Below, in pieces: positions 46,356 through 61,127 of a DNA stretch of 64,000 nt (positions within the stretch are counted from its first letter, which is position 1; each line of letters starts with the position of its first letter). Below the pieces are notes generated by a model that saw nothing but the letters and a program-made list of their open reading frames with translations, was not told the origin of the DNA and searched no databases. Location of the stretch: the NCBI RefSeq assembly GCF_056712565.1, contig NZ_CM160072.1; one strand, 5' to 3'. A program made the translations under genes and the position numbers.

Positions 46356-47114
46356 TCAATTCTGCAAAACCGATGACACCAGCAACTGGGTATACGGATG
46401 GTGCGGGTCGTCGAGCACGCGGTCGGTTAACCCACTCTCCACCACTTTCCCTTGCTTCATTACCAGCAAACGGTCCGCCAGCAGACGGGCGACGCCTAAA
46501 TCGTGGGTGACAATCACCACCGCCAGGTTAAGCTCCATCACCAGACCGCGGAGCAGGTCCAGCAGGCGCGCCTGTACCGACACATCCAGCCCGCCAGTGG
46601 GTTCATCCATAAACACCAGCTTCGGATGCGTCACCAGGTTGCGGGCAATCTGCAAACGTTGCTGCATGCCGCCGGAAAAGGTGGTCGGCAGGTCGTCGAT
46701 CCGGTTGGCGGGAATCTCCACCTCTTCCAGCCATTTCTGCGCGGTGGCGCGAATATCGCCGTAATGACGCGCTCCGGTTGCCATCAACCGTTCGCCGATA
46801 TTGCCGCCTGCCGACACCTGGCGGCGCAGGCCGTCAAGCGGATGCTGATGCACCACACCCCATTCGGTGCGCAGCAGGCGACGGCGGTCGGCCTCGCTCA
46901 TCGCGTACAGCGAACGGTTCTCGTAGCGAATTTCCCCTTGCTGTGGTGTCAGGCGGGCGGAGATCGACTTCAGCAGCGTGGTCTTCCCGGAGCCGGACTC
47001 CCCAACAATGCCCAGAACTTCTCCCGGCCATAAATCAAAAGAGACATCGCTGAAGCCTTTGCCCGGGGCATAAAGGTGGGTCAGGTTATTGACCGAAAGT
47101 AACGGTTGATTCAT
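46356..47114 (-). CDS. phnK: C-P lyase ATP-binding component
   Basis: 252 aa from [11 protein letters not shown]; Walker [13 protein letters not shown] overlap with phnJ stop. Confidence 0.9.
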
Positions 47115-47956
47115 TGGCTTTTGGCCTCGTTCTGTTGGCGGCAATAATCGGTATCGGAGCAGACAAACATGCGGTTTCCGGCGTCATCCAGCACCACTTC
47201 GTCGAGGTAACTGTGGGTCGATCCGCAGATGGCGCATGGTTCATCCCACTGCTGGACGGTGAACGGATGATCATCGAAATCGAGGCTTTCCACGCGGGTA
47301 AACGGTGGCACGGCATAGATGCGCTTCTCGCGCCCCGCGCCAAACAGTTGCAGGGCGGGCATCATGTCCATTTTCGGGTTATCGAATTTCGGGATCGGCG
47401 ACGGGTCCATTACGTAGCGCCCGTTCACCTTCACCGGATAGGCGTAGGTGGTGGCGATATGACCGAAGCGGGCGATATCTTCATACAGTTTCACCTGCAT
47501 CACGCCGTACTCCTCCAGCGCGTGCATGGTGCGCGTTTCCGTCTCACGCGGCTCAATAAAGCGCAGCGGTTCGGGGATCGGCACCTGGAAGATAATGATC
47601 TGATCTTCGGTCAGCGGCGTTTCGGGTATGCGGTGACGCGTCTGGATAAGTGTCGCATCGTCCGTGCGCTCGGTGGTGTTCACCCCGGTCACGCGCTTAA
47701 AGAAGTTACGAATCGACACGGCGTTGGTGGTATCGTCTGCGCCCTGGTCAATCACCTTCAACACGTCGCTTTCGCCAATCACGCTGGCGGTGAGCTGAAT
47801 GCCGCCGGTTCCCCAGCCGTAGGGCATCGGCATCTCGCGTCCGCCAAACGGCACCTGATAACCGGGGATTGCCACCGCTTTTAAGATAGCGCGGCGGATC
47901 ATGCGTTTGGTCTGCTCGTCGAGGTAAGCAAAGTTGTAGCCGCTCAGATTAGCCAT
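47111..47956 (-). CDS. phnJ: C-P lyase catalytic subunit (radical SAM-like, Cys-rich C-terminus)
   Basis: 281 aa from MANLSGYNFAYLDEQ; C-terminal CAICGSTHSYLDE..CSDTDYC cluster. Confidence 0.9.
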   Translation of the reverse strand: MANLSGYNFAYLDEQTKRMIRRAILKAVAIPGYQVPFGGREMPMPYGWGTGGIQLTASVIGESDVLKVIDQGADDTTNAVSIRNFFKRVTGVNTTERTDDATLIQTRHRIPETPLTEDQIIIFQVPIPEPLRFIEPRETETRTMHALEEYGVMQVKLYEDIARFGHIATTYAYPVKVNGRYVMDPSPIPKFDNPKMDMMPALQLFGAGREKRIYAVPPFTRVESLDFDDHPFTVQQWDEPCAICGSTHSYLDEVVLDDAGNRMFVCSDTDYCRQQNEAKSQ

Positions 47957-49013
47957 GGTTCTGCTCCTGTTGCAGACGTTTGAGTAGCTCCAGTTCGGCC
48001 TGGAAATCGACGTAGTGCGGGAGTTTGAGATGCGAAACAAAGCCTGCGGCTTCGACGTTGTCGGCATGGGCCAGCACGAACTCTTCATCCTGTGCCGGAC
48101 CTGTTGCGTGCTCGCCGTATTCCGGTGCCTGCAACGCACGGTCAACCAGCGCCATCGCCATTGCTTTGCGCTCGCTCATGCCGAACACCAGCCCATAGCC
48201 GCGTGTAAAATGCGGTGGTTCATCCGGCGGGTCGATAAAACCGTTGACCATTTCACACTCGGTCATCAACAATTCGCCGACGTTCACCGCAAATCCCAGC
48301 TCTTCCGGCACAATAAATATATCGATATAGCCACTGCGAATTTCGCCTGCGAACGGGTGATTGCGCCCGTAACCGCGTTGGGTGGAGTAGGCCAGCGCCA
48401 ACAAATAGCCTTCGTCACCGCGCATTAATTGTTGTAGACGGGAAGAACGCGAACAGGGATAAACCGGCGGCGTGCGGGTGATGTCGTCCGGTTGTGCGCC
48501 GCTATCTTCTTCAAACTTCGCCAGCCCCTGACGCGCCAGCAGGCTGAAGACGTGTGGCGACGGTTGCTGTTCGCTGTCAGCGGTGGTCAGCGTTGGCGTT
48601 TCGCCGTTTGCCAGCAGGGTGAAATCGAGCAGGCGATGGGTGTAGTCGTAGGTGGGGCCAAGCAGTTGGCCGCCGGGAATGTCTTTATAAATTGCTGAAA
48701 TACGCCGTTCGAGACGCATCCCGGTGGTGTCGAGCGGCTCACTGACCGCCAGCTTCGCCAGCGTGGTGCGGTAGGCGCGCAACAGGAAAATCGCTTCGAC
48801 GTTATCGCCGCTGGCCTGTTTCAGCGCCAGCGCGGCCAGCTCGCGGTCGGCAATACCGCCTTCGGTCATCACGCGATCTACCGCGAGGTTAAGCTGCTGT
48901 TCAATCTGGGCGACGCTCAGTTCAGGCAAATCAGTATCGCCCCGGCGTCGGCTCTCTTGCAGGGCGTGGGCGGCGTCGATCGCCTTTTCGCCCCCTTTCA
49001 CGGCAACGTACAT
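47949..49013 (-). CDS. phnI: C-P lyase core complex subunit
   Basis: 354 aa from [13 protein letters not shown]. Confidence 0.9.
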   Translation of the reverse strand: MYVAVKGGEKAIDAAHALQESRRRGDTDLPELSVAQIEQQLNLAVDRVMTEGGIADRELAALALKQASGDNVEAIFLLRAYRTTLAKLAVSEPLDTTGMRLERRISAIYKDIPGGQLLGPTYDYTHRLLDFTLLANGETPTLTTADSEQQPSPHVFSLLARQGLAKFEEDSGAQPDDITRTPPVYPCSRSSRLQQLMRGDEGYLLALAYSTQRGYGRNHPFAGEIRSGYIDIFIVPEELGFAVNVGELLMTECEMVNGFIDPPDEPPHFTRGYGLVFGMSERKAMAMALVDRALQAPEYGEHATGPAQDEEFVLAHADNVEAAGFVSHLKLPHYVDFQAELELLKRLQQEQNHG

Positions 49014-49597
49014 CAGCACACCTCCACATGAGTGGTTCGCGGAATAGCCAGCAGGCGCTCGCCGCAGGTCAGGATCAGGTCGATGCCGAGCGGGAACGGG
49101 TGCGGGCGCTCGGTAAGTTCATGAAGAATGCACTTTGGCAGTTGCGGGGCGATCATCCGTTCTTCGGCAATACCTGCGCCGGTGAGGCGCAACATACGCC
49201 CACCGCTCAGGCTGGTGACCTGTAAAATCAGCGTTGCGCCCGCTTCTGGTGCAACGGCAGTGCCGGTGGAAAGGGCGTTGAGCTGCTCGCTGGAGATCGC
49301 CTCATCTGTTACCGCGAAGGTCGCCTGTTTCGGCTGATTAACCAGCGGCGCGTTGGTATGAAAACGCAGGCTCTGATTGACGATATCGTTGCTCAATGGC
49401 GCGGCAAGCCACACCGGCGTGTCGTTATCGGCCAGCGTCAGCAGCACGCTGGTGGTGGCGATATTCAGCGGCTGCCAGCCGCGCTTGAGCTGATGCAGGG
49501 CGACAATCACGCCCGGCTCGCTCATGGCCTTTAACAGGCGACGAAAACTGTGTTGGGCATCCTGCACGGGAAGCATAAAAGCGGTTTCCAGGGTCAT
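49013..49597 (-). CDS. phnH: C-P lyase core complex subunit
   Basis: 194-aa ORF, overlaps phnI start. Confidence 0.9.
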
Positions 49598-50046
49598 GCG
49601 TTGTCTCCGCGAACCATCGTAAAGAAGTCGACCCGGCTGGCGTTCACTTCGGCCTGGCGCGCGGCAATGCGTGCCATACGGTCAGCGTCCAGCGGGGTGA
49701 TAAGGGTTTCTGATAAGTTTTGAAAGTGGCGGTTTTGCTGCATCAGCGCATCAATCAGCGCACAACGTTCGGCGTGCTGTTTGTCGCGCCCCAGCACCCA
49801 GCTATAGCCGAGCGTGCCGTCAGTCAGACGCACGGCGGCGCGGGTGAGCGTGGCGTCGCCAGCAAAAAAGCGTTCGCCGGTGCCGCCCATTCGCGCCTGA
49901 ATCTGCACCAGGCCAGTTTCAGCGGCGCGGATCACCTCATAATCGGCGTTGATGTTCAGCGCGTTCAGGCGGGCTGCCAGTTCAGCCGGTTGGCTGTGCG
50001 CCAGCACGGACATCCAGTGCTGGCGGGTCGCGGTATCTGCGTGCAT
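49594..50046 (-). CDS. phnG: C-P lyase core complex subunit
   Basis: 150-aa ORF. Confidence 0.9.
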
Positions 50047-50772
50047 TCAGTGCTCCATAGTGAATTCAATCATGTCGGCGCGCGTCAGGCTGACGGAGTA
50101 CTCCGCCGGGCTGCTTTCACCGTCACGGTGGTTAAGGGTGCGCACGCACAGCAGCGGCGACATATTCGGGATTTCAAGACGCTGGCACTCTTTGGCCTGG
50201 GCGCGGCGGGCGCTGATCCGCGTCTGGCTGCGTCGTAGCGTAATCCCCGTTTGCTCGCGCAGAAAATCGTGCAGCGAACCGCTGTCGAAACGTTGCAGCG
50301 TCGGCCAGAGGGTGAGGTCCGCAAAGTAGTGGTCGATTAAACAGAGCGCGACGCCGTTGACCCGACGCAGGGTGCGCAGGTGGATGACGTTCTCCCCCTC
50401 GGTTATCCCCAGCGCGTCAGCGACGTGACCGGAGGCGGGGCGCAGCACCGATAGCAATTTTTCGCTGGTGGGATGGCTGCCCTGGTCCAGCAGGTTCTGG
50501 CTAAAACGCGCCTGGGCGTTGAGCGGGTAATCGAACGGGCGCATCAGCACCAGTACGCCGACGCCCTGACGGCGCTGTACCCAGCCTTTTTCCACCAGTT
50601 GGTCGATGGCGCGGCGCAGGGTGTGGCGGTTCACCTCAAAGCGCGCCGCCAGTTGCTGCTCGGCGGGAAGATAGTCGCCGCAGCGGTAGTGTTGACGAAG
50701 CTCCTGCTCAAGTTTTGCGGCTATCTCCTGATAGCGTGTTGGGTAGCTGGTCGGATGTGTAGACAAGTGCAT
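50047..50772 (-). CDS. phnF: GntR-family repressor of the phn operon
   Basis: 241 aa from MHLSTHPTSYPTRYQEIAAK. Confidence 0.9.
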   Translation of the reverse strand: MHLSTHPTSYPTRYQEIAAKLEQELRQHYRCGDYLPAEQQLAARFEVNRHTLRRAIDQLVEKGWVQRRQGVGVLVLMRPFDYPLNAQARFSQNLLDQGSHPTSEKLLSVLRPASGHVADALGITEGENVIHLRTLRRVNGVALCLIDHYFADLTLWPTLQRFDSGSLHDFLREQTGITLRRSQTRISARRAQAKECQRLEIPNMSPLLCVRTLNHRDGESSPAEYSVSLTRADMIEFTMEH

Positions 50773-50792
50773 AGCCATCAATGCCTCGCTTA

Positions 50793-51635
50793 TCAGATAA
50801 AGTGCTTACGCAACCGTTGAGAGAGGAAATCCAGCAGGCTGACCGTGACGATGATGAGCACCATCAGGGCGCAGGTTTGCTGGAACTGGAAACCGCGAAT
50901 CGCTTCCCACAGCGTGACGCCGATCCCGCTCGCGCCAACCATACCGACGACGGTCGCCGAGCGGACGTTGGATTCGAAGCGATAGAGAGAGTAGGAAATC
51001 AGCAGCGGCATGACCTGCGGTAGTACGCCGTAGAGGATCTCTTCCAGCTTGTTGGCACCGGTAGCGCGAATGCCCTCCACCGGGCCGGGTTCAATCGCTT
51101 CTACCGCTTCGGAAAGCAGTTTGGAAAGTACGCCGGTGGTGTGGATAAACAGCGCCAGCACGCCAGCGAACGGGCCGAGGCCGACGGCGACCACGAACAG
51201 CATGGCGAAGACTATTTCGTTAATGGCGCGGCAGGCGTCCATCAGGCGGCGTACAGGTTGGTAGACCCACCACGGTACCAGGTTTTCAGCGCTCATCAGG
51301 CCGAAGGGGATGGAGAGAACCACCGCCAGCGCGGTGCCCCAGACGGCGATTTGCAGCGTGACGGCCATTTCGGTGAGGTAATCCTGCCACTGGCTGAAAT
51401 CGGGCGGGAAGAAGTCGGCGGCGAACGTCGCCATGTTGCCGCCATCTTTAATCAGCGTAAGCGGTGCCATTTCCGCGCCCTGCCACGAGACGACCAGCAC
51501 GGCGATAACAACGGCCCAGCTCAGAAGCGAGAACCAGCTGCGCTTGGGTGGGGCGATGGTGATGGTTTGCATGTTTGGCTCCGGTCTGTAGGCCGGATAA
51601 GGTGCTTGCACCGCATCCGGCATCAACGTCTGCAC
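50793..51635 (-). CDS. phnE: Phosphonate ABC transporter permease; open reading frame uninterrupted
   Basis: Continuous 280-aa ORF (internal alternative start [10 protein letters not shown] possible) with polytopic topology. Confidence 0.85.
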
Positions 51636-51680
51636 ATTGTCGGATGCGACGCCGGGGCGTCTTATCCGACCTACGATTTA
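51585..51680. repeat. REP element pair between phnE and phnD
   Basis: GTAGGCCGGATAAGG..CATCCGGC and CGGATGCGACG..CGTCTTATCCGACCTAC palindromes. Confidence 0.8.
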
Positions 51681-52694
51681 CTGCACCGCTTTACTCACCG
51701 AACTCATTGCGCTTAACGCGTTGTTCAGGCGGTCCAAATCATCCAGTTGCGCCTGAATGGCGGTGGTTTTTGCCAGCTTGTCCTGTTCGTTCAGCCCTTT
51801 GTTGTCCTTCACGCTTTGCATCTCTTTAAACAGCGCGAGCTGGCGAATCGGCACCAGTTGCAGGTCGCTGGAGGCGCGGAACGGCGCCCAGCCCAGGCGT
51901 TCCAGCACCGCTTTCTCTTCCGGCGTTTTGCCGTAGTTCATAAAGAAGTCGTAGATCTTGTCTTTGGTGGTTTCGGACAGATTTTTGCGCCAGACGATCG
52001 GATCGCCTGGGATCAGCGGCGATTTCCAGATCACCTTCAGTTCTTTGAGCTTCTCCGGCGCGGAGGTTTTCAGCTTGTCGAGGTTTTCGGTGTTATTGGT
52101 CGCCACATCCACTTGCTTGTTGGCGACGGCCAGCGCATTGGTTTCATGCCCGGCGTTGACGGTGCGCTTGAAGTCGCTGGCGGAGATATTGTTTTTAGCG
52201 AAGACGTAGTAACCGGGGACGAGGAAGCCGGAGGTAGAGTTAGGATCGCCATTGCCGAAGGTGAGATCTTTCCGCTTCGCCAGCAGATCGTTCAGGTTGT
52301 TGATCGGGCTATCTTTGTTGACGATCAACACGCTCCAGTAACCCGGCGATCCATCCGCCGCGACCGTCTGGGCGAAGACCTGGCCGTTGGCGCGATCCAC
52401 CGCTTCCATCGCCGACAGGTTGCCGTACCAGGCGATATCCACTTTATTGAAGCGCATCCCCTGGATAATGCCCGCGTAGTCCGGGGCAAAGAAGGCGTTG
52501 ACCTTTACGCCCAGCTTCTTCTCCATATCCTGTAAGAACGGCGTCCATTGCGGTTTCAGGTTTTGCTGTGATTCCGTTGAAATAATGCCGAAATTCAGCG
52601 CCTTTTCCTGCTCTTCGGCGTATGCCGGATTTAACAGGGTGCTGAGGCTGAACATGCTGGTGAAGGCCAGCGAGGCAATTATCTTAGCGTTCAT
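51678..52694 (-). CDS. phnD: Phosphonate ABC transporter periplasmic binding protein
   Basis: 338-aa ORF with signal peptide. Confidence 0.9.
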   Translation of the reverse strand: MNAKIIASLAFTSMFSLSTLLNPAYAEEQEKALNFGIISTESQQNLKPQWTPFLQDMEKKLGVKVNAFFAPDYAGIIQGMRFNKVDIAWYGNLSAMEAVDRANGQVFAQTVAADGSPGYWSVLIVNKDSPINNLNDLLAKRKDLTFGNGDPNSTSGFLVPGYYVFAKNNISASDFKRTVNAGHETNALAVANKQVDVATNNTENLDKLKTSAPEKLKELKVIWKSPLIPGDPIVWRKNLSETTKDKIYDFFMNYGKTPEEKAVLERLGWAPFRASSDLQLVPIRQLALFKEMQSVKDNKGLNEQDKLAKTTAIQAQLDDLDRLNNALSAMSSVSKAVQ

Positions 52695-52718
52695 TCGTTT
52701 TCCTCAATGATGGGGATG

Positions 52719-53507
52719 TCAGGCAGCTTTCGCGTTCTCTTCGACGCGGTTAATGCTGCGGTAGAGATGGTCAAAACGTTCGTTATCAAACTGTTGGCTG
52801 CAGCCGTCGTAGAAGACGTGCCCCTGGCGCAGGGCGACGATGCGTTCGCAGTAGCGCAGGGCGTAATCCACCTGATGCAGCGTGACGACCACGGTAATGC
52901 CGTCGTTCTGGTTGATGTCGCGCAGGGTGTCCATCACGATGCGTGCCGATTCCGGGTCCAGCGAGGCGATGGGTTCGTCAGCGAGAATGACCTTCGCCTG
53001 CTGCATCAGCGCGCGGGCAATCGCCACACGCTGTTGCTGGCCGCCGGAGAGTGTGGAAACGCGTTGATGGGCAAAGTGCACCATGCCAACGCGGGTCAGC
53101 GCCTGTAACGCGCGCTGTTTCTGCTCGCGGGTGAAGTAGCTAAAACAGGTTCGCCAGAATGGCGTGCTGCCGAGCGCGCCAATCAGCACGTTCTCCAGTA
53201 CGCTCAGGCGATTCACCAGGTTGAATTGTTGAAAGATGTAGCCGGTATGGGCGCGGCTTTTACGGATATCGCGGGCCAGACGGCCTTCGCGCTGGACAGT
53301 GCGGCCCAGCAGCTCGATATGGCTACCGACAGATTTATCGCCGGTAATCAAACCGCTTAAGTGACGTAAAAGGGTGGATTTTCCGGAACCCGACGGCCCA
53401 AGCAGAGCCACCATTTCACCATGATGAATGTTCAGATCAACCGCGTGCAGCGCCTGATGCTGATTGAAGGTTTTGGCGAGCTTCTCGACACGGATAATCG
53501 TTTGCAT
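52719..53507 (-). CDS. phnC: Phosphonate ABC transporter ATP-binding protein
   Basis: 262-aa ORF, Walker [10 protein letters not shown]. Confidence 0.9.
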
Positions 53508-53547
53508 GATGCAGCCTCCCTAAAAAAGTGGCTCCATCGTGGCGGAT

Positions 53548-53584
53548 TATTGTGACGATTTGGTTAATTAAAAGTGACTAACAG
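53548..53584 (-). promoter_or_regulatory. Pho box (PhoB binding repeats) of the phnC promoter
   Basis: Minus strand reads CTGTTAGTCACTTTTAATTAACCAAATCGTCACAAT, direct repeats resembling CTGTCAT-N4 units, about 40-75 bp upstream of the phnC ATG. Confidence 0.5.
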
Positions 53585-53639
53585 ATGAAGAGTTAACGGG
53601 AATTCGATGACAGTGCGGGAGGGTGGGCCTCCCGGCGGG

Positions 53640-54083
53640 TTATTGCGTTGGCTGTTGTTTGACGACATTAATCATCCACGGTACGCCAAATTTATCGGTG
53701 ACTTTGCCGAAGCCATGCGCCCAGAAAGTTTCCTGCCAGGCCATTTCGATTTTTCCGTTAGCGGCAAGGTTGTCAAACCAGCGTTTTCCTTCTTCGACCT
53801 GTTGCGAATCGAGCACCAGCGTAAAGCCGGAGTAGCTGGCTTTTCCTGACGGTATAGCATCGCTCATCATGATGTCGCTTCCTGCAATGCGCACGTTGGC
53901 ATGAGCGATGGCGGTATCGGGAAATTGCATTCCGGAAGGGCAGTTTTCGGCGCTGTCCTGCGCTGATTTCGGCATTTCGCCGAAGCTGATTTTATAGAGC
54001 AGTTCCGCGCCCAACGTACGTTGATAATAGGCAATCGCGTCGGAACAGTTACCGGCAAAAGAGAGGTAGGGACTTAACGGCAT
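53640..54083 (-). CDS. yjdN: Glyoxalase/bleomycin-resistance-fold protein (PhnB-like)
   Basis: 147-aa ORF, synteny. Confidence 0.85.
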   Translation of the reverse strand: MPLSPYLSFAGNCSDAIAYYQRTLGAELLYKISFGEMPKSAQDSAENCPSGMQFPDTAIAHANVRIAGSDIMMSDAIPSGKASYSGFTLVLDSQQVEEGKRWFDNLAANGKIEMAWQETFWAHGFGKVTDKFGVPWMINVVKQQPTQ

Positions 54084-54147
54084 GATGGTGACCTCAGTTA
54101 AGAGAAGCCCGTTAAGTGTAGTTCGAAATTTATACAGATGAGAGGGA

Positions 54148-54230
<83 letters not shown>

Positions 54231-54242
54231 ATCACAATACAA

Positions 54243-54578
54243 TCAGTTCTTTTTCACAAACTCAGATTTCAGTTTCATCGGACCAAAACCGTCGATTTTG
54301 CAATCGATGTTATGGTCGCCTTCAACCAGGCGGATGTTTTTCACTTTGGTGCCAATTTTCAGCATCGAAGAGCTACCTTTCACCTTCAGATCTTTAATGA
54401 TGGTCACGCTGTCGCCGTCAGCCAGCAGATTGCCGTTAGCATCTTTAACGATCAGCTCGTCGCTTTCCTGTGCAGGTTCTGCGTCGTTCCATTCGTAGGC
54501 ACATTCCGGGCAGATGTACATGCCGTTATCTTCGTAGGTGTATTCGGAGTTGCATTTTGGGCAGTGTGGTAATGACAT
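54243..54578 (-). CDS. yjdM: Zinc-ribbon protein PhnA/YjdM
   Basis: 111 aa from [30 protein letters not shown] (two CxxC pairs). Confidence 0.85.
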
Positions 54579-54980
54579 GTGGATTTCCTCAAAAGTCAGC
54601 AGGGCAAAAGCGCCAAAAAACGGCAGATTGCCGAAAAAGGCCGCAATTATACACAAAATCCCTGAGTTTGTCGGGGGTACTGCTGATTTTAGACGACGAT
54701 CGTTTTCATTTGAAAGGAAACGCAAAAAGAAAATAATCTTTTTGCCTCCATTTATTATTTAAGATAAGGTTAATGCTCTACATGTTCTTTTTTTAATTCA
54801 AATGATATTTTTTATCTTTCTGACGTTTTAAACGTATCGGAAGACGTTATTTATTCTAATAAAAAACAACACTCTAAATATAAAATTATTTCTTGCAGTA
54901 ATTATAAAAGCCGAAAACAGAACTCAAAAACAATCTGGCTAAATAAAAGTAATAAAATTTGCTTTAAGGAAAAATTTTCT

Positions 54981-57209
54981 ATGTACACACAGACCCTGTA
55001 TGAGTTAAGTCAGGAGGCTGAACGCCTGTTACAGCTTTCTCGCCAACAGTTGCAGTTACTGGAAAAAATGCCTCTCTCTGTACCCGGAGACGATGCGCCA
55101 CAACTGGCTTTACCCTGGAGTCAGCCTAATATCGCCGAACGTCACGCGATGCTGAATAATGAGTTGCGTAAAATTTCCCGACTGGAAATGGTGCTGGCGA
55201 TTGCCGGTACTATGAAAGCAGGGAAATCAACCACCATTAATGCCATTGTTGGTACGGAGGTTCTGCCTAATCGCAATCGCCCAATGACTGCGCTGCCAAC
55301 GCTTATTCGCCATACGCCCGGGCAAAAAGAACCGGTACTGCATTTTTCACATGTCGCGCCAATCGACCATTTAATTCAACAATTACAACAGCGCCTGCGT
55401 GATTGCGATATTAAGCATCTGACCGATGTGCTGGAAATAGATAAAGATATGCGTGCGCTTATGCAGCGGATTGAAAATGGCATCGCTTTCGAAAAATATT
55501 ATCTGGGTGCTCAACCTATTTTTCATTGTCTGAAAAGTTTGAATGATTTGGTGCGACTGGCGAAGGCGCTGGACGTCGATTTTCCTTTTTCTGCTTACGC
55601 CGCCATTGAGCATATTCCCGTGATTGAAGTGGAGTTTGTCCATCTGGCGGGGCTGGAGAGTTATCCCGGTCAGTTGACGTTACTGGATACCCCCGGGCCA
55701 AATGAAGCCGGGCAACCGCATCTGCAAAAAATGCTTAACCAGCAGCTGGCACGCGCCTCGGCGGTACTGGCGGTGCTGGATTATACGCAACTGAAATCGA
55801 TCTCCGATGAAGAGGTCCGTGAGGCAATTTTGGCGGTGGGGCAATCGGTGCCGTTGTATGTGCTGGTCAATAAGTTCGATCAACAGGATCGTAACAGTGA
55901 CGACGCCGACCAGGTGCGGGCACTGATTTCCGGAACGCTGATGAAAGGCTGTATTACGCCACAGCAGATATTTCCGGTGTCGTCGATGTGGGGCTACCTG
56001 GCGAATCGGGCGCGCCATGAGTTAGCCAACAACGGTAAGTTACCACCGCCAGAGCAACAACGCTGGGTGGAAGATTTTGCCCATGCCGCGCTCGGCAGGC
56101 GCTGGCGTCATGCCGATCTGGCGGACCTCGAACATATTCGCCATGCTGCCGATCAGTTGTGGGAAGATTCGCTGTTCGCCCAGCCAATTCAGGCGTTGCT
56201 TCATGCCGCTTACGCTAACGCCTCGTTGTATGCTCTGCGATCTGCCGCGCATAAACTGTTGAATTACGCGCAGCAGGCGCGGGAATACCTGGATTTTCGT
56301 GCGCACGGGTTAAACGTCGCTTGTGAACAATTGCAGCAAAATATCCATCAGGTCGAAGAAAGTTTGCAGCTATTGCAACTCAATCAGGCGCAGGTGAGCG
56401 GCGAGATTAAACATGAAATCGAGTTGGCCCTGACCTCCACCAACCACTTTCTGCGTCAACAGCAAGATGCGGTGAATGCGCAGTTAGCCGCGTTGTTTCA
56501 GGATGATTCGGAGTCGTTAAGTGAGATGCGTACCCGCTGTGAGACACTGTTACAGACGGCGCAGAACACCATCAGTCGCGACTTTACGCTGCGCTTTGCC
56601 GAGCTTGAGTCCACCCTTTGCCGGGTGTTAACCGATGTTATTCGCCCCATTGAGCAACAAGTCAAAATGGAATTGAGTGAGTCTGGGTTTCGTCCTGGGT
56701 TTCATTTTCCTGTTTTTCACGGCGTAGTTCCCCACTTCAACACCCGCCAGCTGTTCAGCGATGCAATATCCCGTCAGGAAGCAACGGATGAGCAGATCAC
56801 CCGTTTTGGCGTTGTGCGTGAGATTTTTTCGCGCTGGTTGAATCAGCCCGACTGGGGACGGGGAAATGAGAAATTCCCGACAGAGACGGTTGATTACAGT
56901 GTGTTGCAACGAGCATTAAGCGCAGAAGTCGATCTTTATTGCCAACAAATGGCTAAAGTTATGGCAGAGCAGGTCGATGAATCTGTTACGGCAGGCATGA
57001 ATACTTTTTTCGCTGAGTTCGCTTCATGTTTGACGGAATTACAGACGCGTTTACGCGAAAGTCTGGCTCTGCGTCAACAAAATGAATCCGTGGTCAGGCT
57101 GATGCAACAGCAATTGCAGCAGACTGTGATGACTCACGGCTGGATTTACACCGACGCTCAGCTGTTACGCGATGATATTCAAACACTTTTCACGGCAGAA
57201 CGATATTGA
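54981..57209 (+). CDS. crfC: Dynamin-like GTPase, clamp-binding sister replication fork colocalization protein
   Basis: 742-aa ORF with P-loop GTMKAGKST and dynamin-like DTPG motif. Confidence 0.9.
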   Translation: MYTQTLYELSQEAERLLQLSRQQLQLLEKMPLSVPGDDAPQLALPWSQPNIAERHAMLNNELRKISRLEMVLAIAGTMKAGKSTTINAIVGTEVLPNRNRPMTALPTLIRHTPGQKEPVLHFSHVAPIDHLIQQLQQRLRDCDIKHLTDVLEIDKDMRALMQRIENGIAFEKYYLGAQPIFHCLKSLNDLVRLAKALDVDFPFSAYAAIEHIPVIEVEFVHLAGLESYPGQLTLLDTPGPNEAGQPHLQKMLNQQLARASAVLAVLDYTQLKSISDEEVREAILAVGQSVPLYVLVNKFDQQDRNSDDADQVRALISGTLMKGCITPQQIFPVSSMWGYLANRARHELANNGKLPPPEQQRWVEDFAHAALGRRWRHADLADLEHIRHAADQLWEDSLFAQPIQALLHAAYANASLYALRSAAHKLLNYAQQAREYLDFRAHGLNVACEQLQQNIHQVEESLQLLQLNQAQVSGEIKHEIELALTSTNHFLRQQQDAVNAQLAALFQDDSESLSEMRTRCETLLQTAQNTISRDFTLRFAELESTLCRVLTDVIRPIEQQVKMELSESGFRPGFHFPVFHGVVPHFNTRQLFSDAISRQEATDEQITRFGVVREIFSRWLNQPDWGRGNEKFPTETVDYSVLQRALSAEVDLYCQQMAKVMAEQVDESVTAGMNTFFAEFASCLTELQTRLRESLALRQQNESVVRLMQQQLQQTVMTHGWIYTDAQLLRDDIQTLFTAERY

Positions 57210-58084
57210 CCAAGACGTTACTGGACGGCCCCGGTCGCGTGCTGGAGTCGGTTCATCCGCGCTTTTTAGTGGATCTGGCGCAGGGCGATGATGCCCGCCT
57301 TCCACAAGCCCATCAGCAGCAGTTTCGTGAACGACTGATGCAGGAACTTCTTGCGCGCGTGCAGCTTCAGACATGGACGAACGGCGGCATGTTAAATGCG
57401 CCGCTTAGCCTGCGTCTGACATTGGTGGAAAAACTGGCGTCGATGCTGGATCCCGGTCATCTGGCGCTGACGCAGATCGCGCAGCATCTGGCGCTGCTGC
57501 AAAAAATGGATCACCGCCAGCACTCTGCTTTCCCGGAGCTCCCCCAGCAAATTGTCGACTTGTATGAGTGGTTTTCAGCCCGTTGTCGCTGGAAGGAAAA
57601 GGCGTTAACGCAACGAGGCCTATTGGTGCAGGCGGGTGAACAGAGCGAGCAAATTTTTACCCGCTGGCGTGCTGGGGCGTATAACGCCTGGTCGTTGCCT
57701 GGGCGCTGCTTTATCGTTCTGGAGGAGTTGCGCTGGGGTGCATTTGGCGATGCCTGCCGTCTGGGAAGACCGCAAGCGGTGGCGTTGTTGCTGGGTGATT
57801 TGCGCGTGAAAGCGACACAACATTTGGCAGAGAGTATCAATGCGGCCCCGACCACGCGTCACTATTACCATCAGTGGTTTGCCTCTTCGACCGTTTCGAC
57901 GGGCGGGGAGCATGCTGATTTTTTAAGTTGGCTGGGAAAGTGGTCCACGGCAGATAAACAACCCGTTTGCTGGTCAGTGACCCAACGCTGGCGAACTGTC
58001 GCACTGGGGATGCCACGACTCTGTTCAGCGCAGCGTCTGGCGGGAGCAATGGTCGAGGAAATCTTCTCTGTAAATTTGGTGTAA
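57206..58084 (+). CDS. yjcZ: Uncharacterised protein co-transcribed with crfC
   Basis: 292-aa ORF overlapping crfC stop by 4 nt. Confidence 0.85.
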   Translation: MTKTLLDGPGRVLESVHPRFLVDLAQGDDARLPQAHQQQFRERLMQELLARVQLQTWTNGGMLNAPLSLRLTLVEKLASMLDPGHLALTQIAQHLALLQKMDHRQHSAFPELPQQIVDLYEWFSARCRWKEKALTQRGLLVQAGEQSEQIFTRWRAGAYNAWSLPGRCFIVLEELRWGAFGDACRLGRPQAVALLLGDLRVKATQHLAESINAAPTTRHYYHQWFASSTVSTGGEHADFLSWLGKWSTADKQPVCWSVTQRWRTVALGMPRLCSAQRLAGAMVEEIFSVNLV

Positions 58085-58347
58085 ATAATCAGTTACACCA
58101 ATGAGTCCTAAACGAAATACATGTGTGAAGTTGATCACAAATTTAAACACTGGTAGGGTAAAAAGGTCATTAACTGCTCAATTCAGGCGTCAACTGGTTT
58201 GATTGTACATTCCTTAACCGGAGGGTGTAAGCAAACCCGCTACGCTTGTTACAGAGATTGCATCCTGCAATTCCCGCTCCCCTTTTGCGGCCGTCGCGCT
58301 GATTTTTCTGGCGTTTGCGGAAATGGGCCAACTCTGCGAGGAAAGCT

Positions 58348-59850
58348 ATGCTGAAAAGGAAAAAAGTAAAACCGATTACCCTTCGTGATGTCACCATTAT
58401 TGATGACGGTAAACTGCGTAAAGCCATTACCGCAGCATCACTGGGTAATGCAATGGAATGGTTCGATTTTGGTGTTTATGGTTTTGTTGCTTACGCATTA
58501 GGTAAAGTTTTTTTCCCGGGGGCTGACCCCAGCGTGCAGATGGTTGCTGCACTCGCCACTTTCTCCGTTCCCTTTCTGATTCGACCGCTTGGCGGGCTCT
58601 TCTTTGGTATGTTGGGCGATAAATATGGTCGCCAGAAGATCCTCGCTATCACTATTGTGATTATGTCGATCAGTACGTTCTGTATTGGCTTAATACCGTC
58701 CTACGACACGATTGGTATTTGGGCACCGATTCTGCTGTTGATCTGTAAGATGGCACAAGGTTTCTCGGTCGGCGGTGAATATACCGGGGCGTCAATATTT
58801 GTTGCGGAATACTCCCCTGACCGTAAACGTGGCTTTATGGGCAGCTGGCTGGACTTTGGTTCTATTGCCGGGTTTGTGCTGGGAGCTGGCGTAGTGGTGT
58901 TAATTTCGACCATTGTCGGCGAAGAGAACTTCCTCGATTGGGGCTGGCGTATTCCGTTCTTTATCGCTCTGCCGTTAGGGATTATCGGGCTTTACCTGCG
59001 CCATGCGCTGGAAGAGACTCCGGCGTTCCAGCAGCATGTCGATAAACTGGAACAGGGCGACCGCGAAGGTTTGCAGGATGGCCCGAAAGTCTCGTTTAAA
59101 GAGATTGCCACCAAACACTGGCGCAGCCTGTTGACATGTATTGGTCTGGTAATTGCCACCAACGTGACTTACTACATGTTGCTGACCTATATGCCGAGTT
59201 ATTTGTCGCATAACCTGCATTACTCCGAAGACCACGGGGTGCTGATTATTATCGCCATTATGATCGGTATGCTGTTTGTTCAACCGGTGATGGGCTTGCT
59301 GAGTGACCGTTTTGGCCGTCGTCCGTTTGTGCTTCTTGGTAGTGTTGCACTGTTTGTGTTGGCGATCCCGGCGTTTATTCTGATTAACAGTAACGTCATC
59401 GGCCTGATTTTTGCCGGCTTATTGATGCTGGCGGTGATCCTTAACTGCTTTACGGGCGTTATGGCTTCTACCTTGCCTGCGATGTTCCCGACGCATATCC
59501 GTTACAGCGCGCTGGCGGCGGCATTTAATATTTCGGTGCTGGTTGCCGGTCTGACGCCAACGCTGGCGGCCTGGCTGGTCGAAAGCTCGCAGAATCTGAT
59601 GATGCCTGCCTATTACCTGATGGTAGTGGCGGTGGTTGGTTTAATCACCGGCGTAACCATGAAAGAGACGGCGAATCGACCGTTGAAAGGTGCGACACCA
59701 GCGGCGTCAGATATACAGGAAGCGAAGGAAATTCTCGTCGAGCATTACGATAATATCGAGCAGAAAATCGATGATATTGACCACGAGATTGCCGATTTGC
59801 AGGCGAAACGTACCCGCCTGGTGCAGCAACATCCGCGAATTGATGAATAA
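58348..59850 (+). CDS. proP: Osmoprotectant (proline/glycine betaine):proton symporter, MFS
   Basis: 500 aa from MLKRKKVKPITLRD with C-terminal coiled-coil extension. Confidence 0.9.
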   Translation: MLKRKKVKPITLRDVTIIDDGKLRKAITAASLGNAMEWFDFGVYGFVAYALGKVFFPGADPSVQMVAALATFSVPFLIRPLGGLFFGMLGDKYGRQKILAITIVIMSISTFCIGLIPSYDTIGIWAPILLLICKMAQGFSVGGEYTGASIFVAEYSPDRKRGFMGSWLDFGSIAGFVLGAGVVVLISTIVGEENFLDWGWRIPFFIALPLGIIGLYLRHALEETPAFQQHVDKLEQGDREGLQDGPKVSFKEIATKHWRSLLTCIGLVIATNVTYYMLLTYMPSYLSHNLHYSEDHGVLIIIAIMIGMLFVQPVMGLLSDRFGRRPFVLLGSVALFVLAIPAFILINSNVIGLIFAGLLMLAVILNCFTGVMASTLPAMFPTHIRYSALAAAFNISVLVAGLTPTLAAWLVESSQNLMMPAYYLMVVAVVGLITGVTMKETANRPLKGATPAASDIQEAKEILVEHYDNIEQKIDDIDHEIADLQAKRTRLVQQHPRIDE

Positions 59851-59900
59851 GCTGAAACGGATGGCCTGATGTGACGCTGTCTAATCAGGTCAATTGAACT

Positions 59901-59917
59901 CTTAAGGTTCACTTAAT
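59901..59917 (+). promoter_or_regulatory. PmrA (BasR) box CTTAAG-GTTCA-CTTAAT upstream of pmrR
   Basis: Direct hexamer repeat with 5-bp spacer matching the YTTAAK-N5-YTTAAK PmrA consensus, 45 bp upstream of the pmrR ATG. Confidence 0.6.
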
Positions 59918-59961
59918 CTCTGACGCGCATACTCTCCTCCAGGTTAACGGAGGAGAGTGCA

Positions 59962-60051
59962 ATGAAAAACCGTGTTTATGAAAGTTTAACTACCGTGTTC
60001 AGCGTGCTGGTGGTCAGCAGCTTTCTTTATATCTGGTTTGCCACGTACTGA
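59962..60051 (+). CDS. pmrR: PmrR, 29-aa membrane peptide (PmrA-activated regulator of LpxT)
   Basis: ORF MKNRVYESLTTVFSVLVVSSFLYIWFATY with one transmembrane helix, preceded by GGAGGAGAG; its 3' end overlaps the basS 3' end on the opposite strand. Confidence 0.6.
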   Translation: MKNRVYESLTTVFSVLVVSSFLYIWFATY

Positions 60052-61127
60052 TCTTTTTTCAGCCGTATCCAGGCCCGCGTGCCGGAAGTCTCTTGCCGGT
60101 TTTGCAGGAAAAACTGCCCGTGATGCAACTGTGTAATGCGGCTGACAATACTTAACCCCAGACCAATCCCGCCATAACGGCTGTCCATTCGTACAAACGC
60201 TTTACTCAACTCCCCGCATTTACTCTCATCAATACCCGGCCCTTCATCTTCAACGGCCATGACCGCTCCGCCATCTTCTTGCAGCTTAATCATAATGTTG
60301 CTGCCTTGTGGGCTATAACGATGGGCGTTTTCTACCAGGTTTCGCAATAACATCCGCAGCAGGGTTGCATCACCCTGAACGGTGATGTCGGCGGCGCTCT
60401 CTGGCAATAGCAGGGTTTGCTGGCGCTGGTCGAGCATGGTACTAAGTTCGTCATACGAGGGGAGAATGACATCTTCCAGCAGTTTTACATGTTGATAATT
60501 ACCGGAAGAAAATGACTGTCCGGCACGCGCCAGTTGCAGCAGCTGGGAGACGCTCTCCATCATCTGATCAAGTCGTGCCACTAACGGTGCTACATCAATG
60601 TGATGCGTTTTCGCCAGCAGTTCCAGATGCAAACGCACCCCCGCCAGTGGTGTTCGCAGTTCGTGCGCGACGTCAGCGGTAAACAACCTTTCGTTATCCA
60701 GCGTGCTGGTCAGGCGACTGACCAGATCGTTTAACGCCGAAACCACCGCATCGATTTCGAGGGTGGCGCTATGAATGGCAATGGGCGTTAAGTTATCGGC
60801 GGTGCGCGCTTCCAGCTCTTTTTGCAGCTCCGCCAGCGGTCGGGTGATGCGGCGTACCGCCTGATAGCAGATAAATAGCGTCAGGCTAACCATAAAGACG
60901 CCGGGGACAATCAGGCTGGCGACCGCCTCGCGGATCTCACGCATGATGTGGCGATCGTTGTTGCGATTGTCGCGTAGCGCCTGCTCAAACAGCTGAATCT
61001 GCTCGGTACTTTCATGCCACAGCCAGAAGACGCTGATCAGCTCAAACACCAACAAAATGGCCCCGATGGTCAATATCAGCCGTTGGCGCAGCGATATTGG
61101 TCGGCGCAGAAAACGCATCAGATTCAA
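60027..61127 (-). CDS. basS: Sensor histidine kinase BasS/PmrB
   Basis: HAMP and HisKA (HELRTPL) motifs; start could be 61127 or the ATG at 61118. Confidence 0.9.
   Translation of the reverse strand: MNLMRFLRRPISLRQRLILTIGAILLVFELISVFWLWHESTEQIQLFEQALRDNRNNDRHIMREIREAVASLIVPGVFMVSLTLFICYQAVRRITRPLAELQKELEARTADNLTPIAIHSATLEIDAVVSALNDLVSRLTSTLDNERLFTADVAHELRTPLAGVRLHLELLAKTHHIDVAPLVARLDQMMESVSQLLQLARAGQSFSSGNYQHVKLLEDVILPSYDELSTMLDQRQQTLLLPESAADITVQGDATLLRMLLRNLVENAHRYSPQGSNIMIKLQEDGGAVMAVEDEGPGIDESKCGELSKAFVRMDSRYGGIGLGLSIVSRITQLHHGQFFLQNRQETSGTRAWIRLKKDQYVANQI

Follow-up and report, generated by a model that had tools for sequence, protein, structure and literature searches.

Introduction

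Escherichia coli K-12 carries a cryptic phnE in which a short repeat is present in three copies, whereas E. coli B and most isolates carry a functional two-copy form, and this distinction has been textbook knowledge since the work of Makino et al. in 1991.

The repeat is built from an 8-bp unit, GCTGGCGT, which has been placed at positions 407-414 of the open reading frame (PMC6469041), and K-12 has three copies of it instead of two (PMC7566553). The two-copy phnE+ allele is the naturally Phn+ state of E. coli B and is also gained by K-12 revertants (PMC6469041, PMC7566553), which arise when one unit is lost by slippage (PMC4759930, PMC6469041). Transduction of the BL21 phnE into MG1655 restored function (PMC6469041), and the cryptic and the functional alleles were defined by Makino et al. 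1991 (as cited in PMC6469041).

Here we analyzed a stretch of 64,000 nucleotides (contig NZ_CM160072.1 of assembly GCF_056712565.1; hereafter the window), for which a first-pass annotation had reported an intact phnE and had judged that the operon around it looks fully functional. The window holds a two-copy, in-frame phnE, very probably the ordinary 'on' allele of a phylogroup-B2-like E. coli whose phnCDEFGHIJKLMNOP operon is complete. The same comparisons brought to light a rare substitution in PhnE, a start codon that had been set too far upstream, and a wide distribution of the K-12-type allele.

Results

The phnE frame and its repeat copy number

The complete genome NZ_CP098206.1 (strain Z0117EC0054, dog, South Korea) is 100% identical to the window across the phn operon. 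Positions 1-42825 are identical between the two, and over positions 41700-60750 a single base differs, at position 57450 in rdcB. A 1,051-bp query around phnE matched 5,396 of the 5,426 complete E. coli genomes, with Z0117EC0054 at 100%. On this basis, the PGAP annotation of that genome could be carried over directly.

The open reading frame reported at 50793-51635 on the minus strand does exist, is uninterrupted (280 aa, GTG start) and encodes PhnE. Within it, the phnE gene itself lies at 50793-51572 (minus strand) and encodes the permease of the PhnCDE ABC importer, a protein of 259 aa. Its 780 bp form an uninterrupted 259-codon frame that runs from a conserved ATG to a TGA stop.

The tandem 8-bp unit is present in two copies (GCTGGCGT GCTGGCGC) at 51152-51167 on the minus strand, corresponding to nucleotides 406-421 of phnE, as seen when the gene was aligned with its counterparts from BL21(DE3), MG1655, a K-12 derivative and two natural isolates that have three copies. 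At this site the window and BL21(DE3) both read GTTC GCTGGCGT GCTGGCGC TG, whereas MG1655 reads GCTGGCGT GCTGGCGT GCTGGCGC. In K-12, the reading frame is lost after codon 140 owing to the third unit, stop codons follow, and PGAP flags the gene as frameshifted. The first-pass annotation had named alignment with K-12 phnE as a check on its statement that no interruption of the K-12 type occurs here, and the statement holds: a third unit was looked for in the window phnE by alignment with MG1655 and BL21(DE3) and was not found, the 8 extra bp of K-12 being absent, with two units against three and no frameshift. The phnE frame is thus uninterrupted because the unit is present in two copies, in contrast to the three copies and the frameshift of MG1655, and with an in-frame two-repeat phnE the 14-gene phosphonate-use operon is structurally complete.

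The phnE+ gene of BL21(DE3) (WP_001193500.1) is the closest described counterpart: it also measures 780 bp, encodes 259 aa, carries two copies of GCTGGCGT and lies in an operon of the same order and spacing. The two proteins are identical at 256 of 259 residues, the window PhnE differing by L23I, M120I and G215S; at the nucleotide level the genes share about 95% identity, with a B2-type haplotype in the window and an A/B1-type haplotype in BL21. The cryptic K-12 gene (b4583, annotated as a pseudogene) is the same gene in the same position, with the same upstream REP pair and the same promoter, but it includes the third 8-bp unit, which the window phnE does not have, and measures 788 bp from the PGAP start.

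The start codon of phnE

An inverted REP pair (51586-51676, no strand assigned) takes up the 105-nt gap between phnD and phnE and is one base off its MG1655 equivalent. A REP core, CTTATCCGGCCTAC, lies at 51588-51601, and the arms of the REP hairpin lie at 51592-51605 and 51608-51621; the window contains 11 occurrences of this core, where 0.04 would be expected. The first-pass annotation had set the 5' end of phnE at 51635, which proved to be wrong. The GTG at 51635 sits between the two REPs, and therefore the 21 extra codons that it adds (51573-51635, minus strand) are REP sequence, a spurious and noncoding extension of the reported frame. The true start is the ATG at 51572, which is preceded by a GGAG 6 nt upstream and is also the PGAP start call in the sequence-identical genome.

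A longer phnE would begin either at GTG 51635 (280 aa) or at ATG 51623 (276 aa, as in the MG1655 record), and we consider such a gene highly improbable. It is true that the reading frame stays open back to 51635 and that the MG1655 record sets the start of its phnE pseudogene 51 nt further upstream than PGAP does. Against this, the extension consists of a REP element, with ATG 51623 itself falling within the REP core GCCGGATGCGG, and the Shine-Dalgarno sequence stands before ATG 51572. In addition, the N-termini of phnE homologues down to 73% identity are all found at the same MQ/MT, and the match to the TIGR01097 profile starts at residue 16 of the short form, while the 21 additional residues match nothing. 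Both the 280-aa GTG-start form and the 276-aa ATG-start form were rejected on the REP sequence, the Shine-Dalgarno sequence, and the starts of homologues and profile.

The start given for phnE (b4583) in the MG1655 reference, at the ATG inside REP core GCCGGATGCGG, is probably a mis-set annotation. On the plus strand, three open reading frames run over phnE (51141-51716, 50781-51023 and 51049-51264). They yielded no Pfam match and were therefore treated as antisense shadows of a GC-rich gene.

Layout and integrity of the phn operon

All genes of the operon lie on the minus strand. The importer genes phnC (52719-53507; ATPase, 262 aa) and phnD (51678-52694; periplasmic binding protein, 338 aa) adjoin phnE, giving the order phnC, phnD, phnE from 53507 to 50793. 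They are followed by phnF (50047-50772), which encodes a GntR-type regulator of 241 aa, and by a block at 46356-50046 that encodes the C-P lyase core complex and an ATPase; in this block phnG (49594-50046), phnH (49013-49597), phnI (47949-49013), phnJ (47111-47956) and phnK (46356-47114) overlap or abut their neighbors. The last five genes are phnL (45565-46245), phnM (44432-45568), phnN (43875-44432), phnO (43454-43888) and phnP (42694-43452). The coordinates of all 14 genes are those of PGAP, checked against MG1655.

The claim that all 14 phn genes are uninterrupted was borne out, since phnC to phnP follow the K-12 order, have the MG1655 lengths and contain no internal stops; each differs from its MG1655 counterpart by 1-11 amino acids, and PGAP lists all 14 as intact in the sequence-identical NZ_CP098206.1. 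The further claim that the genes are translationally coupled stands for 9 of the 13 junctions, where the spacing runs from an overlap of 14 nt to a gap of 1 nt, but not for C-D (24 nt), D-E (105 nt), E-F (20 nt) and K-L (110 nt). phnE is thereby coupled on neither side, with the 105-nt gap upstream and the 20-nt gap downstream.

At a high dS of 0.23, Nei-Gojobori comparison with K-12 gave a dN/dS of 0.043 over the whole operon and of 0.027 in phnE. Strong purifying selection has therefore acted on each of the 14 phn genes, although these ratios report on long-term constraint and are silent on recent changes such as G215S.

Upstream of phnC, the promoter region (53546-53584, minus strand), located by alignment with MG1655, contains the Pho-box-like sequence CTGTTAGTCACTTTTAATTAACCAAATCGTCACAATAAT, a putative PhoB site; the assignment of a Pho box to phnC reportedly goes back to Makino et al. 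1991. From this Pho-box-like region to the phnC ATG the window is 100% identical to MG1655. The 64-kb window does not extend to phoBR or to other trans-acting factors.

Several observations concern the sequence within and around the operon. The 110-nt gap between phnK and phnL also contains an inverted REP pair (46289-46329, no strand assigned), and in both the D-E and the K-L gap the mechanical list of open reading frames runs the downstream gene through the REP sequence, which produces a phnL of 264 aa and a phnE of 280 aa. The operon (42694-53507) shares 92-97% nucleotide identity with MG1655, an unusual divergence for a core locus of E. coli, while the neighboring yjdM and yjdN are 99.7% and 97.5% identical, respectively. 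The spacer between yjdN and yjdM (54084-54242) measures 159 bp and holds one REP at 54215-54228; the corresponding spacers of MG1655 and BL21(DE3) measure 657 bp and 557 bp, respectively, and the variable content between these genes is probably REP-related. A few kb from the phn operon, the D-allose ABC transporter of this strain is broken: alsB (39577-40511, minus strand) is frameshifted and alsC (36959-37939, minus strand) has an internal stop at codon 82, and alsA, alsE and alsK are intact.

Family and fold of PhnE

PhnE matched the NCBIfam equivalog model TIGR01097 with 308.2 bits (cut-off 216.7) in a single stretch, residues 16-258 aligning to model positions 8-251 of 252. Residues 88-258 matched the Pfam family BPD_transp_1 (PF00528) with 91.6 bits, against a cut-off of 26.4. 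The AF2 model (mean pLDDT 86) has the fold of a type I ABC-importer permease, and in Foldseek it best matches type I permeases, MetI foremost (3tui_A; target-normalized TM 0.79, rmsd 2.9 A).

MetI, the permease of the MetNI methionine ABC importer (PDB 3tui, 3dhw), resembles PhnE in this fold, in the presence of an EAA loop and in a VGAGGLG motif that has its counterpart in PhnE. The two proteins share about 20% identity and differ in substrate, and residues 1-60 of PhnE make up an additional N-terminal helix region; the resemblance is one of fold and not of family membership. A sequence search of solved structures returned no PhnE structure, the only matches being MetI and an amino-acid permease at E values of about 1e-5. 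The placement of G215 therefore rests on the AF2 model, from which the effect of a serine is not predictable.

The G215S substitution

Codon 215 (50928-50930, minus strand) reads AGC (Ser) in the window and GGC (Gly) in other E. coli, B2 relatives included, so that G215S falls within the GMVGAGGIG motif. A 57-mer centered on this codon matches exactly in 2 of the 5,426 complete genomes, namely this strain (Z0117EC0054) and APEC E18055 (O2:K1:H7, chicken, South Korea), and with a single mismatch in about 908; in JJ1886, the one single-mismatch genome that was read, the mismatch is GGC at codon 215. The exact PhnE protein was found on 65 contigs, compared with at least 1,000 for the common allele. 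As far as these comparisons indicate, G215S is a derived, rare substitution.

Across 233 PhnE domains, taken as representatives of 50%-identity clusters, column 215 is occupied by Gly in 220 (94%), by Ala in 5 and by Pro, Thr, Ser, Val, Lys or Leu in the rest, and G216 and G218 are essentially invariant. Reversion of S215 to Gly raises the score against the family profile by 3.7 bits, and the other two differences from BL21 PhnE, L23I and M120I, are neutral. The sole break between the helices 175-214 and 217-226 of the AF2 model falls at residues 215-216.

Three-copy phnE in E. coli populations

An 84-mer of K-12 that spans the repeats matched 994 of the 5,426 complete genomes (about 18%) at 99% identity or above, i.e. 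without an 8-nt gap and so with three copies. The two-copy state, in which the 84-mer aligned with the gap, was seen in about 3,857 of the 4,864 complete genomes that were scored. In an evenly spaced sample of the matches, about half of the three-copy genomes came from natural isolates (human, duck, vegetable), and a 788-bp phnE flagged by PGAP as frameshifted was confirmed in SF10 (duck cloacal swab, China) and 300709 (human stool, Mozambique). The first-pass annotation had described the duplication as a trait of the K-12 laboratory strain; K-12 does carry three copies, but the allele is not confined to it. Roughly every fifth complete E. coli genome carries the K-12 frameshift allele, natural isolates among them. 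A literature search on phnE frameshifts in isolates found no population survey.

The K-12-like local haplotype includes the 994 complete genomes with three copies together with about 1,345 that have two. Among the matches listed, all three-copy genomes have this haplotype, and none has the B2 haplotype of the present strain.

Discussion

Very probably, the strain studied here is Phn+ without prior mutation, its expression and transport functions being predicted from the sequence. When cells are starved of phosphate, PhoB would activate transcription from the promoter ahead of phnC. PhnE (259 aa, MetI-like fold) would provide the channel through the membrane in the PhnC/PhnD/PhnE ABC importer, where PhnC2-PhnE2 together with periplasmic PhnD would import alkylphosphonates as well as Pi, the latter a described activity of PhnCDE (PMC6469041). 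PhnG to PhnP would then cleave the C-P bond, and growth on phosphonates should be possible without first deleting an 8-bp unit, unlike in K-12. This mechanism of phosphonate uptake and cleavage is the established one; the two-copy 'on' allele of phnE is likewise already known, and the locus presents nothing new in kind.

The conclusion of the first-pass annotation that the operon is fully functional is sound with respect to the two-copy phnE+ frame, the remaining phn genes and the promoter of phnC, all of which are intact, but it overlooked the rare G215S. Because this substitution affects a conserved glycine, full function is something that we infer rather than read from the sequence. The frame could be intact and the transporter nevertheless impaired, in which case G215S would lower or abolish PhnE function and the operon would be cryptic or leaky through a missense change. 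Such an impairment is suggested by the near-universal glycine at this column in diverse PhnE domains with its essentially invariant neighbors, by the glycine found at the aligned position of the MetI motif VGAGGLG, by the profile gain on reversion next to two neutral substitutions, by the location of the residue at a helix break in the AF2 model, and by the rarity of an allele that is derived on a B2 haplotype in which about 908 genomes retain GGC. Small residues (A, S, T, P) are nevertheless tolerated at column 215 in about 4% of homologues, including one with Ser, the profile penalty is modest, and the allele persists next to phn genes that are otherwise all intact, in no fewer than two independent complete genomes and on 65 contigs. 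On balance we hold an impaired PhnE to be unlikely, and a natural variant that is hypomorphic or altered in specificity to be distinctly improbable. If it were true, G215S would represent a second path, by missense change, to a phosphonate/phosphate importer that is cryptic or retuned. It would be carried by a small sub-lineage of B2 to which one isolate from a dog and one avian-pathogenic isolate (O2:K1:H7) belong, and an intact frame would not mean a functional one.

A further reading, which complements the two-copy 'on' explanation and does not exclude it, is that the phnE repeat acts as a reversible slip-strand switch, such that the two-copy assembly would reflect the majority state of a population with an appreciable number of three-copy 'off' cells. 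Reversible on/off switching of phnE was reportedly described by Iqbal et al. in 2004. The window retains the slippage substrate in the form of two tandem units, a single local haplotype holds large numbers of both three-copy and two-copy complete genomes, three copies occur in natural isolates, and slippage from three to two units is frequent in K-12 (PMC4759930, PMC6469041). However, the three-copy genomes seen all have the K-12-like haplotype and none was seen on B2, a pattern that simple inheritance within one clade fits as well, and a tract of two units is a poorer substrate for slippage than one of three. We therefore treat switching in this strain as possible but rather doubtful, and retain the ordinary two-copy 'on' phnE as the preferred reading. 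The population count of three-copy genomes bears on whether the repeat is a real phase-variation switch in nature.

For annotation, the locus illustrates the placement of the correct phnE start, the extension of open reading frames by REP sequence, and, given the rare G215S, the difference between an intact frame and a functional gene.

In-frame indel alleles of E. coli phnE also recur in public data. A 234-aa PhnE that has lost residues 146-170, and with them most of the EAA loop, is represented by two variants on 126 and 53 contigs, respectively, and other short forms measure 241, 229, 224 and 217 aa. Forms of 284 and 313 aa carry a duplication of the stretch that is deleted in the 234-aa protein. 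Given the recurrence of these in-frame indels, repeated disruption of phnE appears to have taken routes that do not involve the 8-bp repeat.
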